A DNA stretch of 64,000 nt, from contig JAFWMS010000002.1 of NCBI GenBank assembly GCA_017545535.1, positions 31,116 through 95,115 of the forward strand, read 5' to 3'. The first letter of the stretch is position 1. The number at the start of each line of letters is the position of its first letter. The stretch comes from Clostridia bacterium. Lineage in GTDB: Bacteria > Bacillota > Clostridia > Christensenellales > CAG-138. Of the stretch, positions 4,207 to 64,000 are shown piece by piece. Under the pieces are notes generated by a model. The model searched no databases. It was given only the letters and a program-made list of their open reading frames with translations, and had not been told where the DNA came from. A program made the position numbers and the translations under genes.

Positions 4207-4265
4207 CAGGACAGGTATCCCGGGGCCTGGTATACTGAGAACAGTCAAAGGAAAGGAGACGGCCC

Positions 4266-15295: not shown

Positions 15296-15365
15296 AAGCC
15301 TCTGCAACCTGAGAGGACCGAAGCCGGTGTTACTGGTGAAGACACCACAAGGGAGGAAACAAAAT

Positions 15366-24609: not shown

Positions 24610-24708
24610 TCAAGTATAGTTTTACAAAAAATCATCCTCGCTTTGGCTGAATTTCGACATAAGTGGCAATAGAAAAGACTAAGTACTTACCAATGAAAGT
24701 AAAGCAAA

Positions 24709-24948
24709 GCGCCACCCGATGGGTGGCGCTTTCCTTTGGTCTCCCCGGCGGGATCCGAGCCAACGGCCTTCCGCTTAGGAGAACTGCGACTACGCATGGC
24801 TGATAAAGTTAGACGGCATATGGAAAAACCTGAAAAACCCAGTAATTTAGGGCAAAATCGACATTGTATACTATGCTCATTCAAATCACTCTATGATAGC
24901 ATGCTCATGCAAAGTACAGTCAAAATGCAGTCAAAAGTGCAGTCATTT
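24709..24948 (-). repeat. Module copy 1: GC-rich hairpin, tRNA 3'-half relic, conserved spacer, 3 direct repeats T(G/A)CAGTCA
   Basis: Hairpin GCGCCACCC-gat-GGGTGGCGC at 24709-24729. tRNA half at 24737-24781. Shared blocks GCTGATAAAG and AATTTAGGG. Repeats at 24915-24948 with an 11-12-bp period. The module is homologous by eye to 48770-49020. Confidence 0.7.
24737..24781 (-). other. Decayed 3' half of a tRNA-Arg(CCU)-like gene (anticodon loop to CCA), no 5' half
   Basis: The minus strand reads CTCCTAA GCGGA AGGCC GTTGG CTCGGAT CCCGC CGGGGAG A CCA. The layout is canonical but the T-arm is mutated relative to copy 2. Confidence 0.6.
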
Positions 24949-48711: not shown

Positions 48712-49020
48712 TGCAGTCAAAAGTGCAGTCAAAACTCTTTGTAGCCCTGTTTTTGTGAAACAGGAAACAGAAAAAAGTCCCTAATTTAGGGACTTTTTTG
48801 GCCTCCCCGGCGGGATTCGAACCCACGGCCTTCCGCTTAGGAGTACTGTATTCGAAGGTAGCTGATAAAGCCAGACAGCGTCTAGGTTTTTTCAAAAAAA
48901 CCACTGAATTAGGTAAAAATAACGTTTGTTCACCATGAGAATTCTGCGAACTCTGCATCAGTTTGCTCACGCATTGTGCAGTCAAAATGCAGTCAAGTGC
49001 AGTCAAAAGTGCAGTCAAAT
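48712..49020 (-). repeat. Module copy 2 (attP-like): 2 direct repeats, AT-rich hairpin, intact-looking tRNA-Arg(CCU) 3' half, conserved spacer, 4 direct repeats
   Basis: TGCAGTCAAAAG/TGCAGTCAAAAC at 48712-48735. Hairpin AAAAAGTCCCTA/TAGGGACTTTTT at ~48770-48798. tRNA half at 48798-48842. TGCAGTCAA(A)n x4 at 48977-49020, all in the same orientation. Confidence 0.7.
48798..48842 (-). other. 3' half of a tRNA-Arg(CCU)-like gene (anticodon loop to CCA), no 5' half
   Basis: The minus strand reads CTCCTAA GCGGA AGGCC GTGGG TTCGAAT CCCGC CGGGGAG G CCA. This gives loop, anticodon-stem 3' strand, variable loop, T-arm, acceptor 3' strand, discriminator and CCA. The upstream sequence cannot form the acceptor, D or anticodon 5' strands. 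Confidence 0.65.
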
Positions 49021-49179: not shown

Positions 49180-52100
49180 ATGTCAAAACCATTCCCCGAT
49201 ATAACATGGCCAGTCTTTGAAGTATGCAATGCGAATAAGACAAAAGCCTTTGAAGATATGACACGAAAGCTTTTTAATTCTTATTTGGCGGGAAATCAAA
49301 CGTTAGTTTCAGATGGGATTAATCCGGGAATTGAGGTATTGCCGGTTTTGGAACCTGAAGCAAAAGATGATGCGCAAAGAAGATGGATTAGTTTTCAATC
49401 TAAGTACTTTGAAAAAAACACGAATTATAAGGACATTCTGGATTCTGCAAAACAGATAGTTAAGCATTATAAAGGTAAACTTGATTTAGTGTATTTGTTT
49501 TGTAATAATTCCCTTAAGATCTCATGTGATGGATACAAATCAGTTAAAAATCTGCTTGCAGAGGCGGGAATAGAACTACACCCAATAACCAACGAAATGA
49601 TTCTTGATCTTGTTTCCAAGTATCCTGAAATATATAATTATTATTTTCGGCCAAGAGATATCCCCGATTGTTCTCATGATAATCAATCTAGTTTCACGAT
49701 TGATCAAATAGTGTATTCGCTGAAAAACAGCCTAGATGCTGGGAAAATGCCTCCGCAAGATCCTGCTCTTTTAGTTGGTCTTATTCAAGAGAAGCTTGAT
49801 GTTTGCCGAGGTTTTGTTCTTAATATGGAACTGGATCAATTAAAACAGGAATTAGAAAAACTATTTTCTCATGATTTATGCGGAGTTGAGGGAAGTGACA
49901 CCTTACTGTTTTATCAGAACATTCTGAATATACATGAAAGAAAACCCATTCAAAATACGAACACTGATTTGATGCATAATGCAGAAATTGAATGGTTGAA
50001 AGCATTTTATGAAAATACATATGCTATTTCATTTGAGGAGTTCAATAAATACTCGGATGAAATTAGAATTCTCGTAATAGACCAATTGTTTGTCACAAAG
50101 CATTGGAACACGATAATATCTCTTCATGATCAATCGCTTACTCTGGGGAGTGCATGGGAACAGATGGAGCTTTACTATGGCCTCTCACTCTTCAATCTGC
50201 AGCGTTATGAAGAAGCAAGTGCCGTATTACATGGTTTGTTTGAAAAAACTAAGTGTCCAGCGCATGAAATGTATTCTAAGTTTGCGGATATTCAAGTTAT
50301 AAACAGTTTGTTCAGAACAGGAATGAATGCAAATGCCGATATGCTTGCCGAACTGGTCTCTTCTTTAGATGCCTATAAATGCATTAAGCAATATCAAGCA
50401 TCTGATCTTTTGATAGCCTTGCTGACCTTGGAGTCGTATTGTTATCTTGGGTTATCAAAAAAAGAGTATTTGGAAAAGGCCATTTCAACATATGACTCTT
50501 TTTCTGAGAGTGTACGCCTTAATGATATCGTTCGATTCTACTATGCATTATCCGTTGAACTTAATGGGAACATAGATAAAGCGCTAGAACTATATGAAAC
50601 GATGGAATGGAAAGATGACGAAACCATTGCGTATAGATACCTGTTCTGCCTAATCATGATCGGGCAAACCGAAACAGCCTATCAGAAATTCTATCTATTA
50701 CATGATGTTGCAAAAACAGAAAGGATATATGCACTTTCTTTGCTTGCTCTTCATAAAACAGACGTACAGATGGCTCGAAGTCTAGCAAAGAAGTGGCTTG
50801 AAGGGCATTCCAGCGATTTTTTGAGTATTGTTTCATTCATCGTGTATGTGGAAGATCGCGAGATTATTTCTTCGTTGATAATGCCACAATTACATGAGCT
50901 TATGACAACAGAAAGAATATCTTGTTTACCTTTTCGTCAACGTATTGAACTGATTATTTGGTTAGCTCAAAACATTGAAATTGAATTGATGGAACAAGTA
51001 CTTAAAACGATTGATGATGTTAATAACCTGAATGAATCGACAATAGTAGGAATATACCGGTCTTTAGCAGCAGCATGTGAAAAACCGAATGTTTTTATCA
51101 ACCCGATTCTTGAACCAACTACTATAGCCAAGTCAATTGAAACAATTACTGACAGATTCCTTAATGCAGGGATAAACAGAGAATTGTTTTTGCGAATCAA
51201 AATAGCGTGTGTCAATGCCAGACAAAGTTATATTAGCGCATTACAGTATTCAAAAGAATTGTTTGAACTTACTCAAGACGAAACAACCGCTAAAAACATA
51301 ATTAGTATTCTGGTATTACGTAAAGATAGTAATGAAACTGATTATCACCCATATATTGACATTTTGAAGGATTCTGAAGAACCTGACCAATGCATTACTG
51401 TTGCAGCAGGTTTATTGATGATAGGAAAGGAACAAGAAGCTGATTTATACGCATATAAAGCTATTTACTATTTAAACGGAAAAGATGACTTCAGTATCTA
51501 CAATAGTTTCTTTCAACTTGATAGTTTCAAAATGAGGTGGTTACAGGAGGATGAAGTCGTGCCCATTCGTTCTTCAAAGGGAAATGTGATTGTTACCCTC
51601 GAAGCATCTTCTTCAACTACCCAAGAAGCAAAAATGGACGTATGCCTGGATTCAGAAAAAGAATTCTCGCAAGACGGAAATAGAAGCATGGGTGTCTGCC
51701 ATATAAACTCAACAGATACAGATTATCTCAAAATCAAAAGTGCTGGACTGAATCAAGTTATAAAGCTAAAAAACGGAACATTTCAAGTAAAAAGAATCAT
51801 CCCCAGGAAAAAATTCTGCAGGGCTTTTGTGTTTAGCAAATTGCAGGCAAACCAAGAGTATTTTTCTGGGGTGATTATTTCCACGTTGCCTGAAAACCCA
51901 AAGGAAGCAATAGAACAGCTCCGAAAGCTTAGCGACAGGTCTGAACAAGCAAATACGAACCTGAAGATGTATCATTTTGAAGATAGTACCAATCTTGGCC
52001 TGCCAATTGAAGTTGTTGGATTTATGGATTATGATCGCTATCTTGGTACATCAAAGTATTTATTATTTCAACCTGATGAAGCTTTTTATTCTGGTGAAGT

Positions 52101-52887
52101 TGTTTACAGGTTTGATAGTGGAGAAGGTTTGAAGTATGTCATTACACTTTCAACTCTTGTGCTACTTAGCATATTAAATAGACTTGATGTTCTGGATGTA
52201 ATTAAGCAGAACATTATTATTCCAAAGAGTTATCTTCCTTTTTTTCATGATTTATTTGAAAAGGCACTTAATGATCAAGCAATGGACGCCAAAACGCTCT
52301 ATTTCGATGGAGATAAAACCATATTGTCTGACCAAGACCCCACTATCCCCGAAATATGGGAACGGATAGTACGTTTCTGCGACGATTGCGAAACTTATGA
52401 AATAATAGATCAAGAACGAATAGATTATTACATTCAAGAGTCATTAAGAGGTGAAGACTTATTATCAGCATTCAAATTGAACGTTATTCAATTAGATGCT
52501 TTGATACTATCAAGCAGAGAGTCTGCGATGTATCTATGTGATGATCTCTTTTTTCGTAAATTAGCCAACTGGGCTGGCATCAAACACTGTAATACAGCTT
52601 CGCTCCTATTGCTACATGACGATCAAGAATATATCGATTCATTTGTGAAGGAACTATCAAAAACGAACTATATATATGTACCTTTGGCAGGGGTTTCATT
52701 CAGCACAATCCAAGCGATGCAGGATGATATGTTAACTGGTAAAAGAAAAAAAGAACTGAACGCAGGGTGGATCCATCAATACTATGCTGCAAGAGAAGCT
52801 GTTCTAAACGAATTAATTAAGGATGAATTGTTCCATATGCAAATAGTGGATAATACCGATGAGTCAGTGACGGATGATAATAGTTAA
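49180..52887 (+). CDS. Orphan 1235-aa protein: Mrr-like PD-(D/E)xK nuclease head, long TPR-like helical region, GreA/B-C-like beta domain, PIN-like C-terminal domain (candidate defence/conflict effector)
   Basis: aa 23-145: FEDMTRKLF..SDGINPGIEV..WISFQSKYF..LVYLFCNN..IELHPITNEMILDLV follows the Mrr_cat pattern. aa ~300-780 are helix-repeat rich. aa 791-875 have GreA C-terminal-like spacing. aa 985-1130 (KYVITLSTLVLL .. QLDALILSSRESAMYLCDDLFFRKLA) are PIN-like. No GxxxxGK[ST] is present. Confidence 0.55.
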   Translation: MSKPFPDITWPVFEVCNANKTKAFEDMTRKLFNSYLAGNQTLVSDGINPGIEVLPVLEPEAKDDAQRRWISFQSKYFEKNTNYKDILDSAKQIVKHYKGKLDLVYLFCNNSLKISCDGYKSVKNLLAEAGIELHPITNEMILDLVSKYPEIYNYYFRPRDIPDCSHDNQSSFTIDQIVYSLKNSLDAGKMPPQDPALLVGLIQEKLDVCRGFVLNMELDQLKQELEKLFSHDLCGVEGSDTLLFYQNILNIHERKPIQNTNTDLMHNAEIEWLKAFYENTYAISFEEFNKYSDEIRILVIDQLFVTKHWNTIISLHDQSLTLGSAWEQMELYYGLSLFNLQRYEEASAVLHGLFEKTKCPAHEMYSKFADIQVINSLFRTGMNANADMLAELVSSLDAYKCIKQYQASDLLIALLTLESYCYLGLSKKEYLEKAISTYDSFSESVRLNDIVRFYYALSVELNGNIDKALELYETMEWKDDETIAYRYLFCLIMIGQTETAYQKFYLLHDVAKTERIYALSLLALHKTDVQMARSLAKKWLEGHSSDFLSIVSFIVYVEDREIISSLIMPQLHELMTTERISCLPFRQRIELIIWLAQNIEIELMEQVLKTIDDVNNLNESTIVGIYRSLAAACEKPNVFINPILEPTTIAKSIETITDRFLNAGINRELFLRIKIACVNARQSYISALQYSKELFELTQDETTAKNIISILVLRKDSNETDYHPYIDILKDSEEPDQCITVAAGLLMIGKEQEADLYAYKAIYYLNGKDDFSIYNSFFQLDSFKMRWLQEDEVVPIRSSKGNVIVTLEASSSTTQEAKMDVCLDSEKEFSQDGNRSMGVCHINSTDTDYLKIKSAGLNQVIKLKNGTFQVKRIIPRKKFCRAFVFSKLQANQEYFSGVIISTLPENPKEAIEQLRKLSDRSEQANTNLKMYHFEDSTNLGLPIEVVGFMDYDRYLGTSKYLLFQPDEAFYSGEVVYRFDSGEGLKYVITLSTLVLLSILNRLDVLDVIKQNIIIPKSYLPFFHDLFEKALNDQAMDAKTLYFDGDKTILSDQDPTIPEIWERIVRFCDDCETYEIIDQERIDYYIQESLRGEDLLSAFKLNVIQLDALILSSRESAMYLCDDLFFRKLANWAGIKHCNTASLLLLHDDQEYIDSFVKELSKTNYIYVPLAGVSFSTIQAMQDDMLTGKRKKELNAGWIHQYYAAREAVLNELIKDELFHMQIVDNTDESVTDDNS

Positions 52888-52927
52888 AATATCACTCTAT
52901 CATTTACATATCGATCTTTAGACAATA

Positions 52928-53573
52928 CTATGCAAGTATTGGCACAACGCTCGTCTGTAAATCCGGTATTATACTAGAGATATCCGTATCTGGAGATAGC
53001 CATTCCTCTGCCCTACTGTAAGGCACAATAACCGGCATGCGCGGATGAATCTCCCGGATGTTGGATGCAGCATCCTGTGACAGTATAGAGAAGCAGGGCA
53101 GTCGCTGCTGATCGGATGTCTTAATGTACAGACCTGCCAAGTACAAAGGTTCTCGATTCTCAGCATAGAAAGCGTATTTATCTTTTTTGTTCTTGTCTGT
53201 CTTATGCCACTCAAAGTAGCAGGAGGCCGGAATCAGGCAGCGCCGGTCGTTGATGCTGGTGCAGAATAGCGCCTTTTGCGGTTTCGTTTTTCAGCTCCAG
53301 AGTTGCGGTTTCACTGCGGGTGTTAAATACCAGCATGCCTTTGGTTGGATGATTGAAACCCCATTGCATGGGGAACGCTCCAATCTTCCGATGAGCCGCG
53401 GATGGGGCAATGACCGGGGCTATACAGATTCCTTGATCCAAGAACGCGATGTTCATGAAGAGAAATTCCGCAAACCAAGCAGGAAATTCCACTCTGATTG
53501 GGAGCTTGCCAATTTCTGCCATGGTGGCGATTTGGACGAAGATTGATGACTTAATAATTGTATTTATTTCCAC
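52928..53573 (-). pseudogene. Decayed SOS-response-associated peptidase (SRAP/YedK-like) gene
   Basis: The upstream frame gives APVIAP..FPMQWGFN..VFNTRSETA. The downstream frame gives RRCLIPASCYFEW..LYLAGLY..FSILSQDAASNIREIHPRMPVIV. The frameshift is near the A5 run at ~53,290. The N-terminus reads KSSIF where the catalytic MCGRF is expected, and there is no Met start. Confidence 0.7.
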
Positions 53574-53602
53574 CGCCCCGCAGGGGATGACTGCGGGGCG
53601 GT
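53572..53602. other. Boundary hairpin H1
   Basis: ACCGCCCCGCAG-gggatga-CTGCGGGGCGGT, a perfect 12-bp stem, lies exactly at the AT-rich to GC-rich transition. Confidence 0.8.
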
Positions 53603-53653
53603 GCTATGTCAGCCGGAATATAGCCGCCGCGCCATTGATTTTTCCCGGGGAGG

Positions 53654-53662
53654 TGATATACT
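53654..53662 (+). promoter_or_regulatory. Extended -10 (TGaTATACT) upstream of the MATE gene
   Basis: Sequence match only. Confidence 0.4.
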
Positions 53663-53696
53663 TTTGTCAGCAAATCCATCCCGAGAGAGCGGCGAC

Positions 53697-55052
53697 ATGC
53701 AGAGTACCGACCACAAAACCAAACAGTATCTGATGACGGAGGGGCCCATCCACCAACGGGTCCTGCGCTACGCGATCCCGGTGTTCATCGGGTATCTGTT
53801 CCAGCAGCTGTACAACACCGCCGACGCGCTGATCGTGGGGAACCTGGTGGGGCGCAACGCCCTGGCCGCCGTGACCAGCACGGGCTCCATCGTCTATTTG
53901 GCCGTGGGCACCTTCACCGGGTTCTCCATGGGCGCGGGCATCGTGATCGCCCGGTATATCGGCGCGGAGGATTCGGAGAAGACCTCCCAGACCGTCCACA
54001 CGGCCGTGGCCATGGGGCTGTTCTTCAGCGTGCTCTTCACGGCGCTGGGGGTCCTGTTCTCGCCGGTGATCCTGCGTGCCATGGGTACGCCGGAGGACGT
54101 GTTCGCCGACGCGGCCCTGTATCTGAAGATCTATTTCGCAGGCTGCACAGGCCTGGTCATGTACAACATCTTCGTGGGCATCCTGCAGGCCAGCGGCGAC
54201 TCCACCCATCCCCTCTATTACCTCATCACCAGCTCCGCCATCAACGTGGTCCTGGACATCACCCTGATCGGCGTCTTTCACATGGGCGTGGACGGGGCGG
54301 CTCTCGCCACCATCGTGTCCCAGGGGATCGCCGCGCTGCTGGTCATGATCCGCCTGCTGCGCCAGTCCGGGGACATCCGCATCTCGTTCCGCAAGATCGG
54401 GTTCCACTGGCGGCGGCTCCGGGAGATCGTGCTGTTCGGCCTGCCCACAGCGGTGCAGAACACGGTGATCGACTTTTCCAACGTGCTCATTCAGTCCTAT
54501 ATCAACTCCTTCTCCGCCGCTGCCATGGCGGGCATCGGCGCCTATGCTAAGGTGGAGGGCTTCGCCTTCTTGCCGGTCACGGCTTTCTCCATGGCCATGG
54601 CCACCTTCATCTCCCAGAACATCGGCGCCCAGAAGCTGGACAGGGTGAAGGAGGGCATCCGCTTCGGCCTGCTCTGCTCCGTGGCGGCTGTGGAGGTCGT
54701 GGGGATCATCATGTTCCTCTTCGCGCCCCAGCTGGTGGCCGCCTTCAACCAGGACCCCAACGTCATCGCCTACGGGGTGCTCCGGGGCCGGGTCTGCTCC
54801 TTGTTCTTCTGCCTGCTGGGCTTTTCCCACGTGTCCGCCGCCGTGTTCCGGGGCCTGGGCAAGCCCATGGTGCCCATGCTGGTCATGCTGATCTGCTGGT
54901 GCGCCGTCCGGGTGCTGGTGCTGATGACCATCGGGCAGATCTACCACAACATCCTGCTGGCCTGCTGGATCTACCCTATCACCTGGGGCATGAGCACCGT
55001 CGTGGACCTTGTCTATCTCGGCCACGTGCGCAAGAAAGGGTACGCCCTGTAG
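53697..55052 (+). CDS. MATE-family transporter
   Basis: The likely start is ATG 53697 (ORF from 53601). RVLRYAIPVFIGYLFQQLYNTADALIVGNLVG is a MATE signature, with 12 TM helices. Confidence 0.8.
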   Translation: MQSTDHKTKQYLMTEGPIHQRVLRYAIPVFIGYLFQQLYNTADALIVGNLVGRNALAAVTSTGSIVYLAVGTFTGFSMGAGIVIARYIGAEDSEKTSQTVHTAVAMGLFFSVLFTALGVLFSPVILRAMGTPEDVFADAALYLKIYFAGCTGLVMYNIFVGILQASGDSTHPLYYLITSSAINVVLDITLIGVFHMGVDGAALATIVSQGIAALLVMIRLLRQSGDIRISFRKIGFHWRRLREIVLFGLPTAVQNTVIDFSNVLIQSYINSFSAAAMAGIGAYAKVEGFAFLPVTAFSMAMATFISQNIGAQKLDRVKEGIRFGLLCSVAAVEVVGIIMFLFAPQLVAAFNQDPNVIAYGVLRGRVCSLFFCLLGFSHVSAAVFRGLGKPMVPMLVMLICWCAVRVLVLMTIGQIYHNILLACWIYPITWGMSTVVDLVYLGHVRKKGYAL

Positions 55053-55145
55053 CGGGCAAAGCCCTTCAGTCTGGTAAAAAACTAAAGCAAAAAGGATACG
55101 CCCTGTGAGCGGCGTATCCTTTTCTGCAATCGTATTTGCGCTGCT

Positions 55146-55787
55146 TTAGTCCAGCAATCCCTTGTCGATGATCTGGAAGTTGGCCCGGTGGATATAGAGG
55201 GCCTTGCCGTCGATCATGAGCTTGGTGAACTTGGGCAGATCCTCCTGGACCTCCCAATAGACCTTGTTCCCGGAGAAAGCGTAGATGGGCGCGCCCATCT
55301 GGGACTTGATGACCACCACCATGGGCTTGCCGAAGGCGTTTTTGATGCTGTTCACCTTGCCGGCGATCAGCACCGAATCCATGATCCCCGACGAGGAGCT
55401 GTCGATGTCGTCCAGATAGAATTCATACTCCGGGGAAAGCCGCGTGTCGTAGAAGATGCAGGTGTCGCCGCAGGAAATGAGCTGCTTCCCGTCGATAGTT
55501 ATGGTGATGACGGAGCTCAGCGTCTTGGTGGTGAGCCAGCCGTTGGAATCCGAGGAATAGGACGTCTCCTCCACCACGTTGTTGTCGATGTCGATCTTCT
55601 CCCCGTGGGTCCTGAGAGTGCGGATGCCCATGTTGTCGAAGATGTCAATGTTGTATTCGTTTCCGAAGATGCTGCCGTGCAGGTCGTGGATGCCGCTTTT
55701 GAGCATGGAGCAGCCGGCTTGTCCCACCGCCAGCAGCAGAATCAGGACCAGTGTCGCGATCCTCCGTTTCATCTTTCCGCTTTTCAT
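55146..55787 (-). CDS. Lipoprotein of unknown function
   Basis: Lipobox LLLAVGQAGC. The 213-aa protein is beta-rich. Confidence 0.6.
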   Translation of the reverse strand: MKSGKMKRRIATLVLILLLAVGQAGCSMLKSGIHDLHGSIFGNEYNIDIFDNMGIRTLRTHGEKIDIDNNVVEETSYSSDSNGWLTTKTLSSVITITIDGKQLISCGDTCIFYDTRLSPEYEFYLDDIDSSSSGIMDSVLIAGKVNSIKNAFGKPMVVVIKSQMGAPIYAFSGNKVYWEVQEDLPKFTKLMIDGKALYIHRANFQIIDKGLLD

Positions 55788-55895
55788 ATCGTTTTCTCCC
55801 TTGATTCGTCGTTATCCATGAGGATACCCCCTGTTTCGACCCTTGTCAATGGGGAGCAAGAGCGATTCTTTTGACCTCTACACTCAAAAAAACAA

Positions 55896-55934
55896 AAATT
55901 ATAGGTTGATTTTATCCTATAATTTGCGTATACT
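55896..55934 (+). promoter_or_regulatory. phd-doc promoter with a 10-bp inverted-repeat operator
   Basis: AAATTATAGG at 55896-55905 and CCTATAATTT at 55916-55925 bracket -35 TTGATT (55906-55911). A 17-nt spacer leads to -10 TATACT at 55929-55934. Confidence 0.6.
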
Positions 55935-55951
55935 GTTTTCGGAGGTACGAT

Positions 55952-56203
55952 ATGAACATAGATACCAACACCATTGCCACCATGACGGAGGCGAATCAAA
56001 ACTTTTCCCGCGTGGCGAAGAAGGCGGATCAGTATGGGGAGGCCATCATATTCAAGAACAACCGGCCCAAGTATCGGCTGATCGATCTGGAACAGGCGGG
56101 ATCGTCCCCGGATCGGGAGCTTACAGACGATGAAAAGATCGACATCGTGGCCCGGCAGATCCTGAAGGAATACAAACCGGCCTTTTTGGAGCTTGCCAAA
56201 TGA
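55952..56203 (+). CDS. phd: Phd/YefM-type antitoxin
   Basis: 83 aa. TMTEANQNFSRVAKKADQYGEAIIFKNNRPKYRLIDLE matches the Phd/YefM N-domain. It overlaps doc by 4 nt. Confidence 0.8.
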   Translation: MNIDTNTIATMTEANQNFSRVAKKADQYGEAIIFKNNRPKYRLIDLEQAGSSPDRELTDDEKIDIVARQILKEYKPAFLELAK

Positions 56204-56580
56204 TTAAGTTTTCCAGAGAAAAGGTGCTGTTGCTGCACCAGCTGATCACGGAGGAAACGGGCGGCGACGCCGGAGTGCGGGATTTCGGCCTGCTGGATTC
56301 CGCCCTGGAGAATATTTACCAGACCTTTGATGGGCAGGAGCTCTATCCCACCAAGCAGGAGAAGGGGGCGCGCCTGGGGTACACCCTGATCTCCAACCAT
56401 GCCTTTGTGGACGGGAACAAGCGCATCGGCATGTATGTGATGCTGAGCTTTCTTCAGGTCAACGGCATCCATATCCACCCCTCCAACGAGGAAGTGGCCC
56501 GGGTGGGCCTCGCCGTGGCGTCCGGAACCATGAGCTGCGAGGAGCTCCTCGCCTGGATCGTGGAGAATTCGGCGGAGTAG
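56200..56580 (+). CDS. doc: Doc (death-on-curing) Fic-fold toxin
   Basis: 126 aa with the Fic/Doc motif HAFVDGNKRIG. Confidence 0.85.
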   Translation: MIKFSREKVLLLHQLITEETGGDAGVRDFGLLDSALENIYQTFDGQELYPTKQEKGARLGYTLISNHAFVDGNKRIGMYVMLSFLQVNGIHIHPSNEEVARVGLAVASGTMSCEELLAWIVENSAE

Positions 56581-56608
56581 AGAGTAAGCATCGAAGGCCT
56601 GATTTGCC

Positions 56609-56683
56609 ATCTTTACTTTCTGGGTGCTTATCTCCGAGAAAAGTAAAGATTTTTCATCAGTTTTTGCCAAAAAAGTAAAGATT
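56609..56683. repeat. AAGTAAAGAT inverted plus direct repeat cluster
   Basis: ATCTTTACTTTC at 56609-56620 is inverted relative to GAAAAGTAAAGAT at 56638-56650. A third, direct copy AAAAAAGTAAAGATT lies at 56669-56683. Confidence 0.7.
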
Positions 56684-56702
56684 CCACCCAAAACCATGAT
56701 AA

Positions 56703-56729
56703 GCCCCGCAGGGAAATCCCCTGCGGGGC
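56703..56729. other. Boundary hairpin H2
   Basis: GCCCCGCAGGG-aaatc-CCCTGCGGGGC lies directly downstream (minus sense) of the recombinase remnant. Confidence 0.8.
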
Positions 56730-56737
56730 GTTAGCGT

Positions 56738-56820
56738 TTAGGGTTCCGTATCGGGCGGGTTGTCGTCCGCCTCGGCGGGTTGGGCAGTCTTTGGGGCGGG
56801 CATTTTAGGCTTGTGTTCTT
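56738..56820 (-). pseudogene. 3'-terminal remnant (~26 codons plus stop) of a second serine-recombinase gene
   Basis: The minus frame reads EHKPKMPAPKTAQPAEADDNPPDTEP*. The intact recombinase ends EKRKPKMAAAKAAQPPEPNDDPPAPEL*. The DNA is alignable to 59710-59795, and homology is lost at ~56,822. Confidence 0.75.
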
Positions 56821-56907
56821 ACCAACAGGCGATATATCAAGGTTTCCCCATATTCTTTTCCCTGAAATAGAAAATTACCAATTATCCTATACATAACGCT
56901 TTTAAAC

Positions 56908-56916
56908 TGCTATAAT
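56908..56916 (+). promoter_or_regulatory. Extended -10 (TGcTATAAT) upstream of the DUF262 gene
   Basis: Sequence match. SD taggagaag precedes ATG 56962. Confidence 0.45.
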
Positions 56917-56961
56917 TTAGCAAAGAGAGACATGTAGTTTTTCAGAATATAGGAGAAGAAA

Positions 56962-59655
56962 ATGAACGCACAAAAAGCACTTATCACGAACATTTTTAAT
57001 GGTGCAACATTGATCGAAGTTCCATTTTTTCAAAGGCCTTACGTTTGGAATGATGAACTGTGGGCAAAGTTTATTGAAGATATGGAGTTTATCGTCTTAA
57101 CCCATAAAACTCATTTCCTGGGAGCTATTATTCTTAAGGACGCTGGTCAACCAAAACCCGGAGACAAAGTTGCACAGCACCACACTATTGTTGATGGACA
57201 ACAACGGCTTACTACTTTTCTCCTCTTTCTGAAAGCGCTATGCCTTAAGCAGAATCAGATGACCTTTTTTGATTTTCAGTTTAGGATTATGGGGCAAGAG
57301 ATTGCATTGCGTCATGGGAAGAACGATAGGGATGCGTTTGAAAAGGCTATTTCTACGACAACAACTGCAAAAATCGAGAATCCAGAGCCTGGGTCAAGAA
57401 TAATTGAAGCTTTCAACTACTTTTTAGATCATGTGGATGCTTCGAAGTTGAACATTATGGAAATCATTATGAATGCACAGTTCGTCAGGATCGACTTGGA
57501 TATAAATGAAGACGAACAGCAGATTTTTGATACGATAAACTCCTTAGGGGTTAGGCTCACTACCGCCGAGCTGTTGAAGAATTACTTCTATTCTTGGCAG
57601 GATGTGGCGCTGTATGAAAAGTCTTGGGTGGAAGTGTTCGAAAAGGACAACGATACGCGCGCTTATTGGAACCAAGAATTTGAAATGGGCCGCATGACAA
57701 GAACACTGATCGATGTGTTCTTTGATTCTTATTTTCAGTTGTTTGTACAAGATTCCAAGTACAAAGTGTCCACCGAGGACAAGATAGCATACTCCCGGTT
57801 GGAGCATCTGGCTAAGTCCTACCAAGACTTTATCAAGGTTTACTGCAACGGTGACAAGCAGGTAATGCTCGGACCGATGCAACAATACGCGAACAAATTC
57901 CGGGAGATATTCGATCCTGCTTGTGTCGATCGTCAGATGCCTAAGCATCCCGGCATTGAGCGAATCAATGTCATCATTTTCGGGTTGAAGAACGCCACGC
58001 TGATTCCGTACATCCTCTATCTGGCCTGTAACGTGGAAGATTCGGCAGAACACAACAAGATGCTGGAAATCCTCGAAGCTTACATCATGCGGCGGATGGT
58101 CATACGGGCAACGACTAAAAACTACAACAATCTGTTCGTTTCGCTGATACTTAACAAGATAAACACGTCGGAAGCTCTGCTTTCAGCGTTAAAGAAGATG
58201 GGCGATGGGACCACCTATGTGCCGTCCGATGAAGAGCTGTTGGATGGGTTCAGGACGAGTAAGCTGAGCAACCTTCAGGCAAAGGGTGTTATCTACTATA
58301 TCGAATCCGGCATACGGTCTCCCAAGAGCGCCGTCGCCCTTTTAGGCTTTAGGCAATACAGTTTGGAGCACCTTATGCCAAGAAAATGGAGGAATCATTG
58401 GGCGCCCTGCGCCTCTGAGGATTTGGCTCGAGTCAGAGATCAAAAGCTTCAAACGCTCGGCAATTTCGCCATCATTACGCAGTCATTGAACACGTCAATC
58501 AGCGATGCAGATTGGCAGACAAAGAAGGCCGGAAAGAAAGACAATCCGGGTTTGGATCAATGTGCCGCTGGATTGATAACTATGGAAAATGTACTCTCTG
58601 AAAACACTTGGAGTGAGAGCAACATCAGTTCCAGAGCAGACTGGTTATGGGAAAACGCAAAACAGCTTTGGAAAAGTATCATGCCGGCAATTCATGATGG
58701 AACTATTTCTTCCGGGAGTTTGTTTCAATCTACTAACACTATAGAATTGCGAAAACGTTATTGGGCCTACGCACTGCCAGTTATAAAGAAGGAAAACTAT
58801 TATAGGGGAACTTTTTCAAACTGCAATCCACGAGGAACAGGATATATTAGTGGATACTTTGGACTAAGTGGTTTTAGGGTTGATTGCGTAGCGAATTATG
58901 ATGTAGCACGAATAGATTTTTATCTTGGGAATAGTGATGTTAAAAAGAATAAAGCTGCTTTCGATACTTTATTCTCTCATAAGGACGATATCGAAAAAGC
59001 ACTTGGTGTACAATTATCCTGGGATCGTGCTAATGGGAATGTTGCATCTTGGATGATCCACCACCTATATGGTGTGAGCATAGGAAACGAGCAGGATTGG
59101 CCGAAGATAGCTGAATTCCACGCTAAATGGAGCCGGAAGATTTGTGACGTGATGTTGCCTTATCTTCTTTCTCCAGAAATGAAAAAGCCTTTGGAAATCG
59201 GAGCATGGACCAGAGAATGGGCTAATCAGAAAGAAGGCATAGCGTTTGACGTTGGAAATTGCAGTCTCCATTATACTCGTTTTACCACTGCTGCTATGAC
59301 TGAGATTTTGCCTAATCTAAAGGATGTTCCGAGCGCTTGGAACACGGATTCGCATTATTTCTATGAAATAAACACTATGTCTTCCGGAAAAATACTGATG
59401 CAGATGGCGATAAATTCTAAGAATATTACAAGCGACTATCGTGCCATCTGTGATGCGATCCAGAAGGTCTATCCATCAAAGCATAATCCCTCCAAAGCTA
59501 ATACGGATGAATGGGAGTATCGCGTACCTTTCATGACAAAACCGCTTAATGCTACGAAAATGGAGAAAGAAGATGTATTCAAGCAACTTGACCAATGGCT
59601 AAATGAAGTGAAATCCTTTGAAAAAGACTTAAAGCAAAAACTTGAAAATCAATAA
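56962..59655 (+). CDS. GmrSD-like DUF262 + DUF1524 (His-Me finger) protein with C-terminal DUF4268-like extension (type IV restriction-like)
   Basis: DUF262: EVPFFQRPYVWNDELW..FLGAIIL..VDGQQRLTTF. DUF1524: SLEHLMPRKW..LGNFAIITQSLNTSISDADWQTKK. The tail RKRYWAYALPVIK..FDTLFSHKDDIEKALGVQLSWDR is DUF4268-like, followed by ~170 aa I could not assign. Confidence 0.75.
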   Translation: MNAQKALITNIFNGATLIEVPFFQRPYVWNDELWAKFIEDMEFIVLTHKTHFLGAIILKDAGQPKPGDKVAQHHTIVDGQQRLTTFLLFLKALCLKQNQMTFFDFQFRIMGQEIALRHGKNDRDAFEKAISTTTTAKIENPEPGSRIIEAFNYFLDHVDASKLNIMEIIMNAQFVRIDLDINEDEQQIFDTINSLGVRLTTAELLKNYFYSWQDVALYEKSWVEVFEKDNDTRAYWNQEFEMGRMTRTLIDVFFDSYFQLFVQDSKYKVSTEDKIAYSRLEHLAKSYQDFIKVYCNGDKQVMLGPMQQYANKFREIFDPACVDRQMPKHPGIERINVIIFGLKNATLIPYILYLACNVEDSAEHNKMLEILEAYIMRRMVIRATTKNYNNLFVSLILNKINTSEALLSALKKMGDGTTYVPSDEELLDGFRTSKLSNLQAKGVIYYIESGIRSPKSAVALLGFRQYSLEHLMPRKWRNHWAPCASEDLARVRDQKLQTLGNFAIITQSLNTSISDADWQTKKAGKKDNPGLDQCAAGLITMENVLSENTWSESNISSRADWLWENAKQLWKSIMPAIHDGTISSGSLFQSTNTIELRKRYWAYALPVIKKENYYRGTFSNCNPRGTGYISGYFGLSGFRVDCVANYDVARIDFYLGNSDVKKNKAAFDTLFSHKDDIEKALGVQLSWDRANGNVASWMIHHLYGVSIGNEQDWPKIAEFHAKWSRKICDVMLPYLLSPEMKKPLEIGAWTREWANQKEGIAFDVGNCSLHYTRFTTAAMTEILPNLKDVPSAWNTDSHYFYEINTMSSGKILMQMAINSKNITSDYRAICDAIQKVYPSKHNPSKANTDEWEYRVPFMTKPLNATKMEKEDVFKQLDQWLNEVKSFEKDLKQKLENQ

Positions 59656-59677
59656 ATGATATTGAAATAGAAAACAC

Positions 59678-59701
59678 GCCCCGCAGGTCTCCCTGCGGGG
59701 C
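59678..59701. other. Boundary hairpin H3 (also the likely terminator of the recombinase gene)
   Basis: GCCCCGCAGG-tctc-CCTGCGGGGC lies 9 nt beyond the recombinase stop. Confidence 0.8.
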
Positions 59702-59709
59702 GCTTGTGT

Positions 59710-61545
59710 TTATAGCTCCGGGGCGGGCGGGTCGTCGTTCGGCTCGGGGGGTTGGGCGGCCTTGGCGGCGGCCATTTTGGGCTTGCGCTTCTCGTAGTAA
59801 TAGCGGCGGTCGTACTCCTGCCGGCGGCGGCGCTTCTCGGCGGCCAGCTCCTCCTCGGTGAGGGGGACGGGCGGCTCCTCCTCGGGCAGATCCACCTTGC
59901 CGATGTGCTTGAGCATGATCTCCACGGGCTGGATCTTCATGCCGCCCACCCGCCGGGGGCCGTGGACCAGGATCCTGTCCACGAATTCCAGGATCATTTC
60001 GTTGGTCAGCACCGAGAAATCCGTGTACCTTTTGGCCAGGAACAGGAACTGCTCCGCCCGGTCCGTGTCCTTGTCGAAGGCGGCGAGCTGCCCTTGGTCG
60101 TCCGCCAGGGCCTTCTGTAGGTCCGCCTGCTCCGCTTCGTACCGGGCGGCGATCTGCTCATAACGGGCGAGGGGCAGGCGGTTCAGGGCGTAGTCCTCGT
60201 AGAGCTTCACGGAAAGCCGGTCCAGCTCGTCGATCCGCTTCTGGGCCTTGCGGATGCGCTGGCGGACGGCCTTGGCGTCGGCGGTCTGGCGCAGGGCGGA
60301 GGCCTCCCGGACCCGGTGCAAAAACTCCGTCCGGTTCCGGATGGCGAAGGTGGCGGCGGTGCGAATAGCGTCCAACGTCAGGGAGCGAAGGGCCTGGGTG
60401 GTGATGTAGTGGGAGAAGCAGGTCTTGGTTTCCCGCCGGGAGGACATGGTGTAGGTCCTGCACTGGTAGGAGTCCGCGGGCAGCAGCCCTGTCACGGGGT
60501 CGGGGGTGAAGGTGTGCCATTGGTTCTTGGCCATGCCCCGGTGGTTGTACATTTTGCTGCCGCAGTCCGCGCAGAACACCAGCCCCGTGAACACGTTGGG
60601 CTCGCCGGTGGTGTCCGTGCGGCGGACGGTCTTGCGGATCTGCTGCACGGCGTCGAAGGTGCTTTGATCTATGATGGGCTCGTGAGTATTCTCGATGATC
60701 TGCCACTGGCTGGGGTCGCAGTAGACCTTGGGGCTCTTATAGGTCTCCTTGTCGGTCCGATGGTTCACGGTGTGGCCCAGGTACTCCGGCCGGGAGAGCA
60801 TCTTCGCCACCGTCCGGGGGGCCCAGTCGTAGGGGCGATCCAGGTCCGTGGCGTAGAGTTCCAGGCCGTGGGTGTGCATATAGTAGGAGGGGCGCTCTAT
60901 CTTCCGCTCCCTAAGCTTGTTAGCGATGACGGCGGGGCCGTAGCCCTTCAGGGCAAGGGCGAAGACCTCCCGCACCACGGCGGCGGATTCCTCGTCGATC
61001 AGCAGGTGGTGCTTCTGCTCCGAGTCCTTTTTGTACCCGTAGAGCACCTTGTTGGAAAAGGGGATGTTCGCCCGGCTCCGGGCCAGGTAGGACTGCTTCT
61101 GCTTGCGGCTGGCGTCCCTCAAATACCACTCGTTCATGATGTTGAGGAAGGGGGCGAACTCGCCGCTCTGCCGATCCGCGCTGTCCACGCCGTTGGTGAT
61201 GGCGATGAACCGGACCCCGTGCTGGGGAAAGAACACCTCCGTGTAGAAGCCGGTCTGCAGATAGTCCCGGCCCACCCGGCTCATGTCCTTCACCAGCACC
61301 GCCGCCACCTTCCCACTTTCGATGTCCGCCACCAGCCGCTTCCAATCCGGGCGCTCAAAGTTGCCGCCGGTGTAGCCGTCGTCGGTGTAGTGGGCGCAGT
61401 TCGAGAAACCATGCTGCGCGGCATAGTCCTCCAACATGCGCTTTTGCATCACGATGGAATTGCTGTCCCCCAGCTGCTCGTCGTCCCGGGACAGGCGCTC
61501 GTATAGGGCTGTAATCTGTTCTTGTTCTGTCTGCCTGACGCTCAT
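59710..61545 (-). CDS. Large serine recombinase (resolvase catalytic domain + recombinase/zinc-ribbon + coiled-coil tail)
   Basis: 611 aa with the catalytic region ALYERLSRDDEQLGDSNSI..VLVKDMSRVGRDYLQ. Cys pairs CADCGSKM..CRTY lie in the zinc-ribbon region. Confidence 0.9.
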   Translation of the reverse strand: MSVRQTEQEQITALYERLSRDDEQLGDSNSIVMQKRMLEDYAAQHGFSNCAHYTDDGYTGGNFERPDWKRLVADIESGKVAAVLVKDMSRVGRDYLQTGFYTEVFFPQHGVRFIAITNGVDSADRQSGEFAPFLNIMNEWYLRDASRKQKQSYLARSRANIPFSNKVLYGYKKDSEQKHHLLIDEESAAVVREVFALALKGYGPAVIANKLRERKIERPSYYMHTHGLELYATDLDRPYDWAPRTVAKMLSRPEYLGHTVNHRTDKETYKSPKVYCDPSQWQIIENTHEPIIDQSTFDAVQQIRKTVRRTDTTGEPNVFTGLVFCADCGSKMYNHRGMAKNQWHTFTPDPVTGLLPADSYQCRTYTMSSRRETKTCFSHYITTQALRSLTLDAIRTAATFAIRNRTEFLHRVREASALRQTADAKAVRQRIRKAQKRIDELDRLSVKLYEDYALNRLPLARYEQIAARYEAEQADLQKALADDQGQLAAFDKDTDRAEQFLFLAKRYTDFSVLTNEMILEFVDRILVHGPRRVGGMKIQPVEIMLKHIGKVDLPEEEPPVPLTEEELAAEKRRRRQEYDRRYYYEKRKPKMAAAKAAQPPEPNDDPPAPEL

Positions 61546-61796
61546 GTGTTCATCCTTTCAGGCTGCCGACAGGACGGTTGCGGTACGTCCAGTATACCAC
61601 CTTCCCCGGCCAATGCAACTGGTTGATTTTGGATCATGTGGATGATCCGATCCTCCATATTCGATCCGTCGCTGTCCACGACGGTAACTTTAACTTGATA
61701 GATGGTGTTTTTGATCCTTCGGGTCATGTTCATGCGGGCTGGGCGGTCCTCCTTCCTCAAGGCCGTGATGGGTGCAATCGTGTCGGTTGATCTCAA
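61542..61796 (-). CDS. TnpW-like small transposon protein
   Basis: 84 aa with 4-nt overlap to the recombinase start. TRRIKNTIYQVKVTVVDSDGSNMEDRIIHMI resembles the recalled TnpW-family core (..IGNTTY.V.VHFS..S.ETxxDKI). Confidence 0.5.
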   Translation of the reverse strand: MRSTDTIAPITALRKEDRPARMNMTRRIKNTIYQVKVTVVDSDGSNMEDRIIHMIQNQPVALAGEGGILDVPQPSCRQPERMNT

Positions 61797-61887: not shown

Positions 61888-63270
61888 TTACCGTTCCCGG
61901 TCATAATGCGAGAACTCTTCGATGAGCTCCCTATCCTCGGTCAGGAAGGGGCGGAGGTTCGATTGGATGCGAGTGCTGTCCGCCTTGATCTGCTCACATA
62001 GACGCACTTCGGTTTTCAGACTGCGGAGCGCCCGATTTACCTCCACGAGATCAGCATACAGCCTTTCCCGCTCAAGTTTGAGGATGTCGATGGGGGTTTT
62101 TGAAAGAATCTGCTGTGCTTTTTGTAATTTGTCCTGCTCCTCCGGGGAGAGAGGACAGCCGGCTTCGTCCCGGCCCTCGAACATGGCCACGGTCTGCAGG
62201 GCGTCGTAGAGGGGCCGCTGCCGCTTCTTTTGCCCGTTCAGGATGATCCGGTGCTTGGTCTGCCAGTCGATCTGTCGGGTGAGATCGGCCATGCGGGCCT
62301 CCAGCTGCTCCAGGGTGTCGATCTTGTTATTGGTCAGGTAGGCCGCCGCCTTCTTCAGCTGCTCGAATCGCTTCAGCTCCTTGGGCGGCACCACATGCTG
62401 CATCTGCACCCCGTCGTTCACCAACCCCAATATGTATGTCCAGGCCAGGACACAGGCCCGGAAACCCGTGACCTTTCCACGGGGAAAGCGGACCCGCTGC
62501 TGCCGGGGCATGATCACCTCGAAGGTGGGGTCCGTCATGGCCTTGTCGATGTAGGCGATGAGGTCGTCCTCCGTCATGGCTTTGCCCTTCACCCGGGCCC
62601 GATGGCCATGCTCGTCTCCATAGGGGACGAAGGTAGGGTAGCGGCTCCGGTGCTGGATGGTGTAGCCCCGATCCTCCATGAGAGCGTAGAACTGCCCCAC
62701 GTCCATGGCCAGGGACAGGCATTCCGCCACGTCCCGGTCCACCAGCTGCCGCTGGGTCCGGATGCCCAGCTTCTGCATCCGCCATTCCACATAGGTCAGA
62801 GCGCGTTTGTTTGGCTCGTCGATAACCGACAGGCCGTACTCCCGGCAGAGCCTGTCCGACAGGCCCCGGATTTCCTTGAAGTAGGAATTGGGTGAGGAGT
62901 GGTACTTGTGCCCGTCCCGGTCCGAGACGGAATTGAAAATGATGTGGTTGTGGACATGAGCTTTGTCCACATGGGTGCCCACGATCACCTCGAACCCGTC
63001 CAGATACCGTTCCGCGAACCGGTTCCCGATCTCATGAGCCAGCTCCGGGGTGATCTCCCCGGGCCGAAAGCTCTGGATCAGGTGATAGGCCTGGACGCCC
63101 TCCGTCCGCCCGAACCGACGCTTGGTGTCCATCCAGGTCCGGGCCGCCGTTTCCGGCTGGCAGCCAATGGATGAAACGAACACCTGTTCACCCGTCTTCT
63201 TGGGGTTCACCACATACCGAATCAGCTTGTCGAGGCGGGCATCCTTGGCCAGTATCTTCGTCACCGCCAT
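61888..63270 (-). CDS. Relaxase/mobilisation nuclease (MobA/VirD2 family)
   Basis: ATG 63270 (MAVTKILAK..) lies inside ORF 61888..63501. AYHLIQSF and the His triad HVDKAHVHNHIIFNSVS are present. Confidence 0.85.
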   Translation of the reverse strand: MAVTKILAKDARLDKLIRYVVNPKKTGEQVFVSSIGCQPETAARTWMDTKRRFGRTEGVQAYHLIQSFRPGEITPELAHEIGNRFAERYLDGFEVIVGTHVDKAHVHNHIIFNSVSDRDGHKYHSSPNSYFKEIRGLSDRLCREYGLSVIDEPNKRALTYVEWRMQKLGIRTQRQLVDRDVAECLSLAMDVGQFYALMEDRGYTIQHRSRYPTFVPYGDEHGHRARVKGKAMTEDDLIAYIDKAMTDPTFEVIMPRQQRVRFPRGKVTGFRACVLAWTYILGLVNDGVQMQHVVPPKELKRFEQLKKAAAYLTNNKIDTLEQLEARMADLTRQIDWQTKHRIILNGQKKRQRPLYDALQTVAMFEGRDEAGCPLSPEEQDKLQKAQQILSKTPIDILKLERERLYADLVEVNRALRSLKTEVRLCEQIKADSTRIQSNLRPFLTEDRELIEEFSHYDRER

Positions 63271-63575
63271 CGTTCCACCTCCTCCCGCAGCTCCCGGTGG
63301 AGGGCTTTCACCCGGTCCCACTCGGCCCGGTCGATGAGGCCGATGGCGTTGGCCCGGTGGGCCAGCTGGTTCAGATTGTTGCCGATCCGGTCCACGGCCC
63401 GCAGCACCTCCCGGAGCTCCGGGGTGGGCTTGGCTTTCAGCTCCGTGTCCGTGATCAGCTTTCGCAGCAGCCGGGTTGAGCCCAGGCCTGTGCGGCGGCA
63501 CAGCTCCATCAATTTCTTATGCTCGGCTTCATTGAGCCGGGTCCCAACGTGAATGTTCCTTGTTCTAAATTCCAT
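63261..63575 (-). CDS. mobC: MobC-type relaxosome accessory protein
   Basis: ATG 63575 (MEFRTRNIHV..) lies inside ORF 63261..63743. The motif is RIGNNLNQLAHRAN. It overlaps the relaxase start by 10 nt. Confidence 0.8.
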   Translation of the reverse strand: MEFRTRNIHVGTRLNEAEHKKLMELCRRTGLGSTRLLRKLITDTELKAKPTPELREVLRAVDRIGNNLNQLAHRANAIGLIDRAEWDRVKALHRELREEVERWR

Positions 63576-63660
63576 GATCCCTTTCCCCGCGCCTCGGCGC
63601 GGCATATGGGTCCGGGTGCCCCGGCAAGCGCATTTGGAACGCCAAATGCTATGCTTGCAA

Positions 63661-63697: not shown

Positions 63698-64000
63698 GTC
63701 TCCTGTTAGGCGCAGCCCCTCCGGAAACCAACTTTGCGGCCATAGCCGCTGTACGATACCCGCGGGCTACAGCCCTGCGCCCGTCCCCACTCGGTCCCTA
63801 CGGACTTACTCTCAACTTTTGTGTCCAGCCAACGTGTGTACTGGAAGAATGACGAATCCTCATCTTCTGAACCTCCTTTCCTTCCTTTTTGTCCCTTTCC
63901 CGCCGCAGCGGTGCGATACGATCAGCCCTTGGCCTCACCTCCTTTCCGTAACTTCGCGCCAAGTTGGCACGAAGTTAGCTCACGGCTACTGATTTGAACT

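Follow-up and report, generated by a model that had tools for sequence, protein, structure and literature searches.

What are three GC-rich hairpins with the same stem doing at successive gene-block borders of one genome island? The question arises in the right-hand part of a 64,000-nt stretch of DNA from a Clostridia bacterium (GenBank assembly GCA_017545535.1, contig JAFWMS010000002.1, positions 31,116 to 95,115 of the forward strand). This whole stretch is called the window below; coordinates are positions in it, and L-numbers (L148, L259 etc.) are contigs of relatives. The hairpins, H1 to H3, lie to the left of rec, the large serine recombinase gene of a small mobilizable element, and an earlier interpretation made from the letters alone (the sequence-only reading) saw in them either a conserved terminus of recombinase elements that had accreted in tandem or decayed, or a terminator. 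The evidence presented here makes it probable that H1-H3 are stem-loops of the intrinsic-terminator type which insulate transcription units, and that they share their sequence by descent from the rec terminator. Most likely, H3 ends the rec gene of the mobile element, H2 is an older, displaced copy, and H1 is an orphan.

Three hairpins with a common core

The presence of three hairpins with a shared stem was confirmed. H1 (53571-53603; CACCGCCCCGCAG-gggatga-CTGCGGGGCGGTG) is a perfect hairpin with a 13-bp stem and a 7-nt loop, H2 (56703-56729; GCCCCGCAGGG-aaatc-CCCTGCGGGGC) a perfect hairpin with an 11-bp stem and a 5-nt loop, and H3 (59677-59702; CGCCCCGCAGG-tctc-CCTGCGGGGCG) a perfect hairpin with an 11-bp stem and a 4-nt loop. 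The core GCCCCGCAG/CTGCGGGGC is common to all of them. The 9-mer GCCCCGCAG is present in seven copies in the window against 1.69 expected (the maximum in 100 shuffles was 4); six of these copies are the arms of H1-H3, and the seventh (10299) is a lone half-site in a coding region. The whole window contains only 17 perfect hairpins whose stem is 8 bp or longer and whose loop measures 3-9 nt; a core is common to H1-H3 and to no other pair. The sharing of a core by three hairpins is beyond chance. They are also the sole very GC-rich (85-91% GC) long-stem hairpins without flanking A/T tracts in the window, the remaining long ones being A/T-flanked terminators of the form AAAAG...CTTTT. The GC steps at H1-H3 were confirmed as real.

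RNA folding gave -27 to -30 kcal/mol for the three hairpins (z -4.4 to -6.6), values matched by none of 200 shuffles. The 8 nt that follow the H3 stem contain 5 and 6 T on the two strands, i.e., H3 has U-rich tails in both directions, and a terminator scan called it as a terminator on both strands. For H2 the corresponding counts are 4 on the minus strand and 3 on the other, a weak U-tract, and for H1 they are 3 and 1, which is no U-tract on either strand. Rfam had no family match in the window or in L001, and a literature search for CCAACTTGG returned primer sequences only.

H2 and H3 adjoin homologous rec 3′ ends

The intact rec gene (59710-61545, minus strand) encodes a large serine recombinase with Resolvase, Recombinase, zinc ribbon (Zn_ribbon_recom) and DUF4368 domains, and its 3′ end lies beside H3. 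A recombinase 3′ end had been proposed to follow H2 as well; what is found there is only a remnant consisting of the stop and the last 24 codons of a diverged allele (56738-56817, minus strand). The distance from stop codon to hairpin is 8 nt at both H2 and H3. The 95 nt that comprise the H2 right arm, the spacer and the remnant (56719-56813) are 80% identical to 59691-59785. Read on the minus strand, the flank of H2 gives KPKMPAPKTAQPAEADDNPPDTEP-stop, where the resident rec ends with KPKMAAAKAAQPPEPNDDPPAPEL-stop. As judged from these alignments, H2 is most likely an older, displaced copy of the H3-type rec terminator that is still attached to the stub of a diverged allele.

The positions of the hairpins relative to genes are as follows. 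H3 stands at gene ends, between the convergent rec and a gene for a DUF262 protein, and H2 lies after doc as well as after the rec remnant. On the plus strand, H2 precedes the promoter-like site of the DUF262 gene (56888-56916), and H1 precedes that of a MATE efflux gene (53635-53662), which lies approximately 30 nt downstream of H1. The position of H1 and H2 upstream of the next promoter-like site fits an insulator role.

The structure after rec is conserved in relatives

With the exception of a single lineage, relatives of rec with 72-98% protein identity have a hairpin behind the stop codon. L259 (94% DNA identity) possesses an H3-type hairpin with the same loop as H3, and L260 (84%) and L262 (92%) carry an H2-type hairpin beside an intact rec, representing a single-hairpin state with a set of 11-mers (see below) beyond it. 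The more distant L261 and L135 (72-77% protein identity) have GCCCCGCAAGAA...TTCTTGCGGGGC and CCCCGTAAGGA...TCCTTACGGGG, respectively, each followed by a clear T-tract, and L136 has a different hairpin, again T-tailed. An alignment of 10 rec-linked hairpins from six lineages showed that 10 of 10 stem pairs are kept and that a T-tract follows in most cases. Two of the 10 pairs have changed on both sides in the relatives with 72-77% identity (GCCCCGCAAG, CCCCGTAAGG), and the length and sequence of the loop vary among orthologous hairpins. Since the stem drifts with compensation and is usually followed by a T-tract, it is the structure that is conserved and not a site, which is the behaviour of a terminator. 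Of the options in the sequence-only reading, the terminator is thus favoured by the folding, the covariation after rec and the H3 tails.

Two further arrangements concern the placement of such hairpins. L206 has H1 24 nt after a plus-strand gene, i.e., in the position of a terminator. L136 offers a parallel to the window, as a convergent Fic gene lies there between the rec stop and a degenerate copy of an older hairpin. All the contigs read that encode the rec or DUF262 protein in identical form are laid out alike, and none gives an indication that a module was excised; exact-protein matches for rec, DUF262 and Doc mostly have this layout too, the variants being L148, L153 and L155.

Breakpoints and a hypervariable cargo region

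Against related contigs, each of H1-H3 lies within 0-120 nt of a breakpoint, and for H2 there are breaks 85-120 nt on either side. The claim that hairpins stand at the edges of cargo blocks is correct insofar as these are real breakpoints. The block of MATE, DUF5052 and Phd genes that had been counted among the cargo is common to five lineages and must be regarded as scaffold. Nor do the hairpins mark every module boundary, as had been proposed: other boundaries either have none or have hairpins of a different kind, such as that at 48771-48799 and an unrelated A/T-flanked terminator hairpin at 55090-55123, between the convergent MATE and DUF5052 genes.

To the left of the scaffold lies variable region 1 (VR1, 24632-53630), which holds hypervariable cargo between two fixed borders, ypeB and the MATE gene; five lineages have five different contents. 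The window version of VR1 is 29 kb long and includes approximately 24 kb of ordinary metabolic genes as well as a low-GC islet at its right end, consisting of a gene for a 1235-aa protein and an SRAP pseudogene (49180-53573). L148, L206 and L262 have the ypeB flank in common with the window up to 24632-24637, after which 3.3-4.8 kb of different cargo follow: an HTH gene, an M78 peptidase gene and a DUF4417 gene in L148 (3.4 kb), an AbiL-like ATPase gene and two small genes in L206 (3.3 kb), and genes for an AAA_15/AAA_23-type ATPase and an Ltp-like lipoprotein in L262 (4.8 kb). We had considered the block from the MATE gene to mobC as one mobile unit and dropped this idea, because L148, L206 and L262 have the same ypeB flank.

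At the right border, L148, L153 and L262 rejoin the window exactly at 53630, 26-28 nt to the right of H1, and do not have H1. Four different left flanks meet at CGCCATTGATTTTTCCCGGGG (53630), and the sequence to the right of it is common to the window and five lineages; in L153, fragments of the DUF5052 gene lie to the left of this junction. L206 rejoins the window at the left edge of H1 and keeps H1 together with the 26-nt spacer that separates it from the breakpoint (53604-53629). In this contig (3609-3639) the H1 loop is inverted, TCATCCC vs GGGATGA, and the stem and the right flank have the same orientation as in the window. Such an inversion hints at a template switch or recombination across the 13-bp arms, from which it would be expected.

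Losses and other differences were found in several relatives. In L153 and L155, 56850-59552 is deleted, which removes the DUF262 gene and leaves both H2 and H3, 270 bp apart; rec breaks off at 61356 and so lacks its 5′ end, and neither the relaxase gene nor mobC is left. L228 is missing 49623-53013, that is, most of the 1235-aa gene. The DUF262 gene is not present in L259 and L262. In L262 and L263, a 304-aa HTH-Fic gene, encoded on the opposite strand, stands in place of doc (11994-12908 and 4210-5124, respectively); this swap corresponds to window 56201-56639 and makes up a second, small variable spot within the scaffold. No deletion in the relatives ends at a hairpin, and the breaks at 53630, 56817-56850, 59552 and 61356 are all off the hairpins. 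The decay of related recombinase elements that had been envisaged is partly right: the remnant by H2 and the losses in L153/L155 and L228 speak for it.

An A/T-flanked terminator hairpin (AAAGCGCCACCC-gat-GGGTGGCGCTTT, 24706-24732) is located 74 nt inside the left border of VR1. Nearness to a border is therefore no special property of the H1-H3 hairpin family.

The origin of H1

H1 is flanked by the 5′ end of the SRAP pseudogene on its left and by that of the MATE gene on its right. A 10-nt core is common to H1 and H3, and the H1 spacer matches the stop-to-hairpin spacer of L260 at six of nine bases. A search for a rec remnant beside H1 found no DNA similarity of its flanks to those of H2 and H3, and the 26-nt spacer, in either reading frame, had no match among the C-termini of the retrieved rec homologues. 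H1 looks like an orphan relic, probably of the same hairpin type, and may descend from a rec terminator.

This brings us to the observations that weigh against the proposed origin and function. The missing remnant is one of them, as the descent of H1 rests on a core of 9-10 nt and the six spacer bases. H1 is without a U-tract and, placed as it is between the starts of two genes in the window, has no obvious gene to end; the U-tract of H2 is weak. In L131, one of the rec relatives, no hairpin follows the stop codon. Furthermore, in two comparisons at least (H1 vs L206, H3 vs L259) a break coincides exactly with the edge of a hairpin, and these edge-exact breaks, taken with the inverted H1 loop, hint that the palindromes might also join in recombination.

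The case of H1 could mean that only two of the three hairpins are related and that H1 resembles H2 and H3 by convergence. Apart from the flanks without homology and the absence of a rec remnant, this explanation is favoured by the exact 12-bp H1 stem being present in 101 unrelated metagenome contigs. On the other hand, among the 17 perfect hairpins of the window just these three have a common core, the chance of a 9-mer match at this composition is 1e-5 to 1e-4 per hairpin by a rough estimate, and the spacer agrees with that of L260 at six of nine bases. We regard a convergent H1 as possible, if rather doubtful.

Do the palindromes take part in recombination?

The breaks at hairpin edges can be explained in another way, namely that the hairpins are terminators and, in addition, recombinogenic palindromes that help to create the module borders through stalled replication or nuclease cleavage. 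Besides the left-edge break at H1 that separates the window from L206, breaks recur at the distal edge of the hairpin after rec, namely in the window (DUF262 gene), in L259 (160-nt insert) and in L136 (Fic gene), and the H1 loop inverted in L206 with the orientation of the right flank kept is what a template switch would give. However, selection alone suffices to produce this picture, as insertions survive only outside a terminator that is needed; the further breaks listed above are off the hairpins; and the sample is a small one of about six lineages. An active part of the hairpins in making the borders is unlikely.

A still stronger form of this idea would make the palindromes cis-acting sites of cargo capture and exchange, processed as hairpins or cruciforms in replication or in conjugative single-strand transfer, with the terminator as a portable docking point for defence cassettes. 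If true, it would explain the edge-exact breaks, the H2 copy, the orphan H1 and the flipped loop, but we consider it a long shot.

The hairpin lies inside the element

The 11-mer AAAGTAAAGAT is present three times between doc and H2 (56609-56619 on the minus strand, 56640-56650 and 56672-56682 on the plus strand), with 0.35 copies expected. Repeats of it stand beside the hairpin in L148, L153, L259, L260 and L262 and are found nowhere else in those contigs. The homology among the window, L148, L153, L260 and L262 passes through the hairpin and extends approximately 95-120 nt further, including the three 11-mers. Between L259 and the window, homology stops at 59678, the distal base of H3; beyond its hairpin, L259 has approximately 160 nt of its own sequence, then an inverted pair of the 11-mer in common with the window, and only then different genes. 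As conserved element sequence continues for approximately 95-120 nt past the hairpin, the hairpin is inside the element and is not its terminus, contrary to what had been proposed.

The region of the AAAGTAAAGAT repeats is likely to be a candidate for the rec-side end or attachment (att) region of the integrative and mobilizable element (IME), or for an operator, and it is a better candidate for the end than the hairpin. No second AAAGTAAAGAT cluster was detected in the window (up to 2 mismatches were allowed), and none that convinced us in the 7.5-10 kb to its right; an inverted 11-mer that might form the opposite end was not found in good quality within 7.5 kb right of the window. Judging from the relatives, the order in the IME is 11-mer repeats, hairpin, rec, a 63-aa open reading frame (ORF), relaxase gene, mobC and an array of palindromes. 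The element is at the same locus in five lineages, and L259 has a different flank at the 11-mers. A plasmid collection contained distant rec homologues only (<47% identity).

These data bear on the proposal that the hairpins are att- or attC-like sites or termini of a serine recombinase and that the blocks between them are mobile modules accreted in tandem. The distance of 8 nt from H2 and H3 to a rec stop codon and the breakpoints at hairpin edges in two comparisons would agree with it, and the rec remnant does mean that more than one related element was once at this locus. The att sites of large serine recombinases are imperfect inverted repeats, roughly 40-50 bp long, around a fixed 2-bp crossover. 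Perfect GC stems with loops of 4, 5 and 7 nt are unlike such sites, and a site would not be expected to change its stem sequence with compensation in distant relatives. In five lineages the element sequence runs on for 95-120 nt past the hairpin, L259 diverging only after the 11-mers; no deletion in L153 or L228 has a hairpin as its end point; contigs with an identical rec or DUF262 protein all have the same layout without a sign of excision; and there is no recombinase beside H1. Tandem accretion mediated by att sites is not supported either, given a single set of candidate end repeats with no internal copy. We consider this proposal very improbable.

The same stem in public genomes and metagenomes

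When one genome per species was scanned for GCCCCGCAG-N3-9-CTGCGGGGC, at least 120 loci were found. Those listed come from Pseudomonas, Streptomyces, Akkermansia, Saccharibacteria, Clostridia and others, and many have the order A-tract, hairpin, T-tract. The 12-bp H1 stem was present in 103 metagenome contigs, from soil to gut, two of which are the relatives L206 and L228 and 101 are unrelated; by a rough estimate, this is about the number that random sampling of GC-rich terminator stems would give. A rule of at least 5 T in 8 nt was passed by 41 of the 119 genome loci listed and by 23 of 102 metagenome loci. When the rec, relaxase, DUF262, MATE, Doc, DUF5052 and 1235-aa proteins were compared by tblastn with 223 listed loci, only L206 and L228 were hit, and a homologue of rec or relaxase was found at 0 of 221 unrelated loci among the matches listed. 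We conclude that the stem is a generic terminator stem of many phyla that is unlinked to recombinases in public data. The sequence-only reading had named this situation, a common terminator with no link to recombinases, as the one that would speak against it. It applies to the public genomes; locally, two of the three copies are tied to a rec 3′ end.

That the hairpins belong to a genome-wide family like the repetitive extragenic palindromes (REP), incidental to the island, is very improbable despite the wide recurrence of the short GC-rich stem in public data, as the 64 kb of the window contain no more than three copies, which lie within 6.1 kb of one another, the fetched contigs of relatives have the hairpin only at the three homologous positions, no transposase of the RAYT type was seen, and the homology of the H2 and H3 flanks would not be explained.

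A possible history of the island

Returning to hairpins of the intrinsic-terminator type that descend from the rec terminator, we infer from the sequence comparisons both their terminating activity and the following order of events. H3 would be a working bidirectional terminator between the convergent DUF262 gene and rec. The single-hairpin layout of L260 and L262 is likely to be the ancestral state. DNA that contained the promoter and gene of the DUF262 protein, H3 and the present rec 3′ end would then have replaced the old allele and given the layout of the window, which is also that of L148 and L153. The replacement would have run rightwards from a point 24 codons before the old stop, leaving behind the stub, the old hairpin and the end with the 11-mers. 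The new DNA probably came from a related element through recombination, which would have been homologous inside rec or to its right and illegitimate on the left side. The joining of a 24-codon stub to the promoter region of a cargo gene suggests replacement by recombination and not att integration, and the 20% divergence of the two copies and the lack of a second set of 11-mers point to recombination between related elements in the same way. H2 might now end doc transcription and shield the DUF262 promoter. H1 may have stayed in place at the right-hand limit of VR1 during exchanges of the cargo on its left. There would be two reasons for the hairpins to stand at module borders: each module is a transcription unit, and an insertion is tolerated only if it falls outside a terminator that is needed.

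Gene content of the island

The islet is preceded on its left by sugar-metabolism genes, the last of which, for an FGGY kinase, ends at 48418. The 1235-aa gene (49180-52887, plus strand) is low in GC. Its product gave a sub-threshold Pfam match only, to the PIN domain of the TPR-GreAB-C-PIN system (E 1.9e-4, residues 990-1130), had no match in PADLOC and belongs to a 90% cluster of 7 members. The SRAP pseudogene (52928-53573, minus strand) is frameshifted and was identified by its Pfam SRAP match.

The conserved scaffold consists of the MATE efflux gene (53697-55052, plus strand) and the gene for the DUF5052 lipoprotein (55146-55787, minus strand), followed by the phd-doc toxin-antitoxin pair (55952-56580, plus strand; phd 55952-56203, doc 56200-56580). 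The DUF262 gene (56962-59655, plus strand) has its own promoter-like site (the one mentioned above), is low in GC and encodes a GmrSD-type protein with DUF262, DUF1524 and DUF4268 domains, a type IV restriction-like cargo. To the right of rec, a 63-aa ORF (61542-61733, minus strand) overlaps the rec start; it is located upstream of rec in relatives too. The mobilisation module (61888-63605, minus strand) comprises the genes for a MobA/VirD2-type relaxase (61888-63270) and MobC (63261-63605). The window contains no tRNA gene that could be an integration target. We saw no tyrosine integrase, integron integrase or RAYT-type transposase, and no conjugation-pore genes in the DNA examined.

Comparison with known systems

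H1-H3 resemble intrinsic (Rho-independent) bidirectional terminators in their GC-rich stem of 11-13 bp after stop codons, the U-tails of H3 and the compensatory changes, and differ from them in that H1 has neither a U-tract nor a gene to end in the window and that the U-tract of H2 is weak.

The element itself is an undescribed small mobilizable element of a known kind from an uncultured gut or rumen Clostridia lineage. With Tn4451/Tn4453 (TnpX) and IME_Rho_tet (PMC5704250, PMC12904643) it shares the combination of a large serine recombinase, a MobA/VirD2-type relaxase and MobC, and relatives have TnpV and TnpW domains. It differs in carrying a GmrSD-type restriction cargo instead of a resistance gene; the likeness is one of gene content, not of protein comparison. 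In IME_Rho_tet of Bacillota, the recombinase-side boundary is located 81-90 bp after the stop codon and has terminal inverted repeats (PMC12904643). The 11-mer region of the present locus agrees with this position: it is found beyond the hairpin, at 56-129 nt from the stop of the remnant.

A second remnant of a recombination module beside an intact one, with stepwise decay in sisters, is also known from the composites of cis-mobilizable elements (CIME) with the integrative and conjugative elements (ICE) ICESt1/ICESt3 (PMC5704250). Accretion by site-specific integration leaves three att sites, whereas the locus studied here has one set of end repeats and no internal copy. Variable cargo between fixed borders, ypeB (24632) and the MATE gene (53630), is a trait of defence-gene hotspots, from which the window version differs in having approximately 24 kb of ordinary metabolic genes as well. 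Finally, short palindromes at the ends of gene units are a feature of REP and bacterial interspersed mosaic elements (BIME) and of integron attC sites, but the DNA at hand contains no high copy number of the hairpins, no RAYT or integron integrase and no attC architecture. Unlike integron cassettes, the genes between H1 and H3 are on both strands, and the hairpins are short perfect palindromes.

In L135 and L136, elements with a rec that is 72-77% identical have spoIIR and a gene for a cell-wall hydrolase as neighbours. Besides a gene for a 953-997-aa protein with a match to the Pfam family RdRP (PF05183; L135 6200-9193 and L136 6229-9090, both on the minus strand), their content includes TnpV/TnpW-like genes, a HEPN/MNT pair or a Fic-MarR gene. 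A ParM-like gene follows rec in L135 and in the related L261.

A palindrome array beside mobC

Upstream of mobC, from window 63950-64000 onward, there is an array of palindromes, which can be followed in L001 (reverse-complemented, 14288-15567, equivalent to window 63997-65276). It contains 19 perfect units in 1.3 kb, with 8-17-bp stems and a 1-nt centre, i.e., approximately 15 palindromes per kb, where the remainder of the window has 0.31 per kb. CCAA(C/G)TTGG is the centre of nearly all units; two have CCATCATGG and one has TCAAATTGA instead. The arms differ among the units yet pair perfectly, and AACTT/AAGTT recur at a spacing of 11 bp. The array is conserved in L148 and L262 (27 units), and L143 is without 1173 bp of it. 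Compared with L148, seven arm pairs have changed on both sides and still pair, and 10 are broken. There was no match to the array in Rfam or in the plasmid collection. It is a candidate for a centromere- or iteron-like protein-binding array, or for single-strand hairpins of a leading region beside the origin of transfer (oriT), and is more unusual than H1-H3.

Implications

The architecture described here is most likely routine for a genome island and not a new recombination signal; the current understanding is unchanged. Two points deserve a further look, namely the array of palindromes beside mobC and the small chance that the hairpin palindromes have a part in the exchange of cargo. As a caution for similar cases, shared hairpins at compositional borders need not be recombination sites. 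The comparison of relatives locates the likely true end of the element and defines a cargo hotspot with fixed borders. If the proposed origin of H1-H3 is true, the locus would be an example of how the history of an island can be read, in which a terminator and the last codons of rec mark the place where a restriction cassette displaced an older allele.

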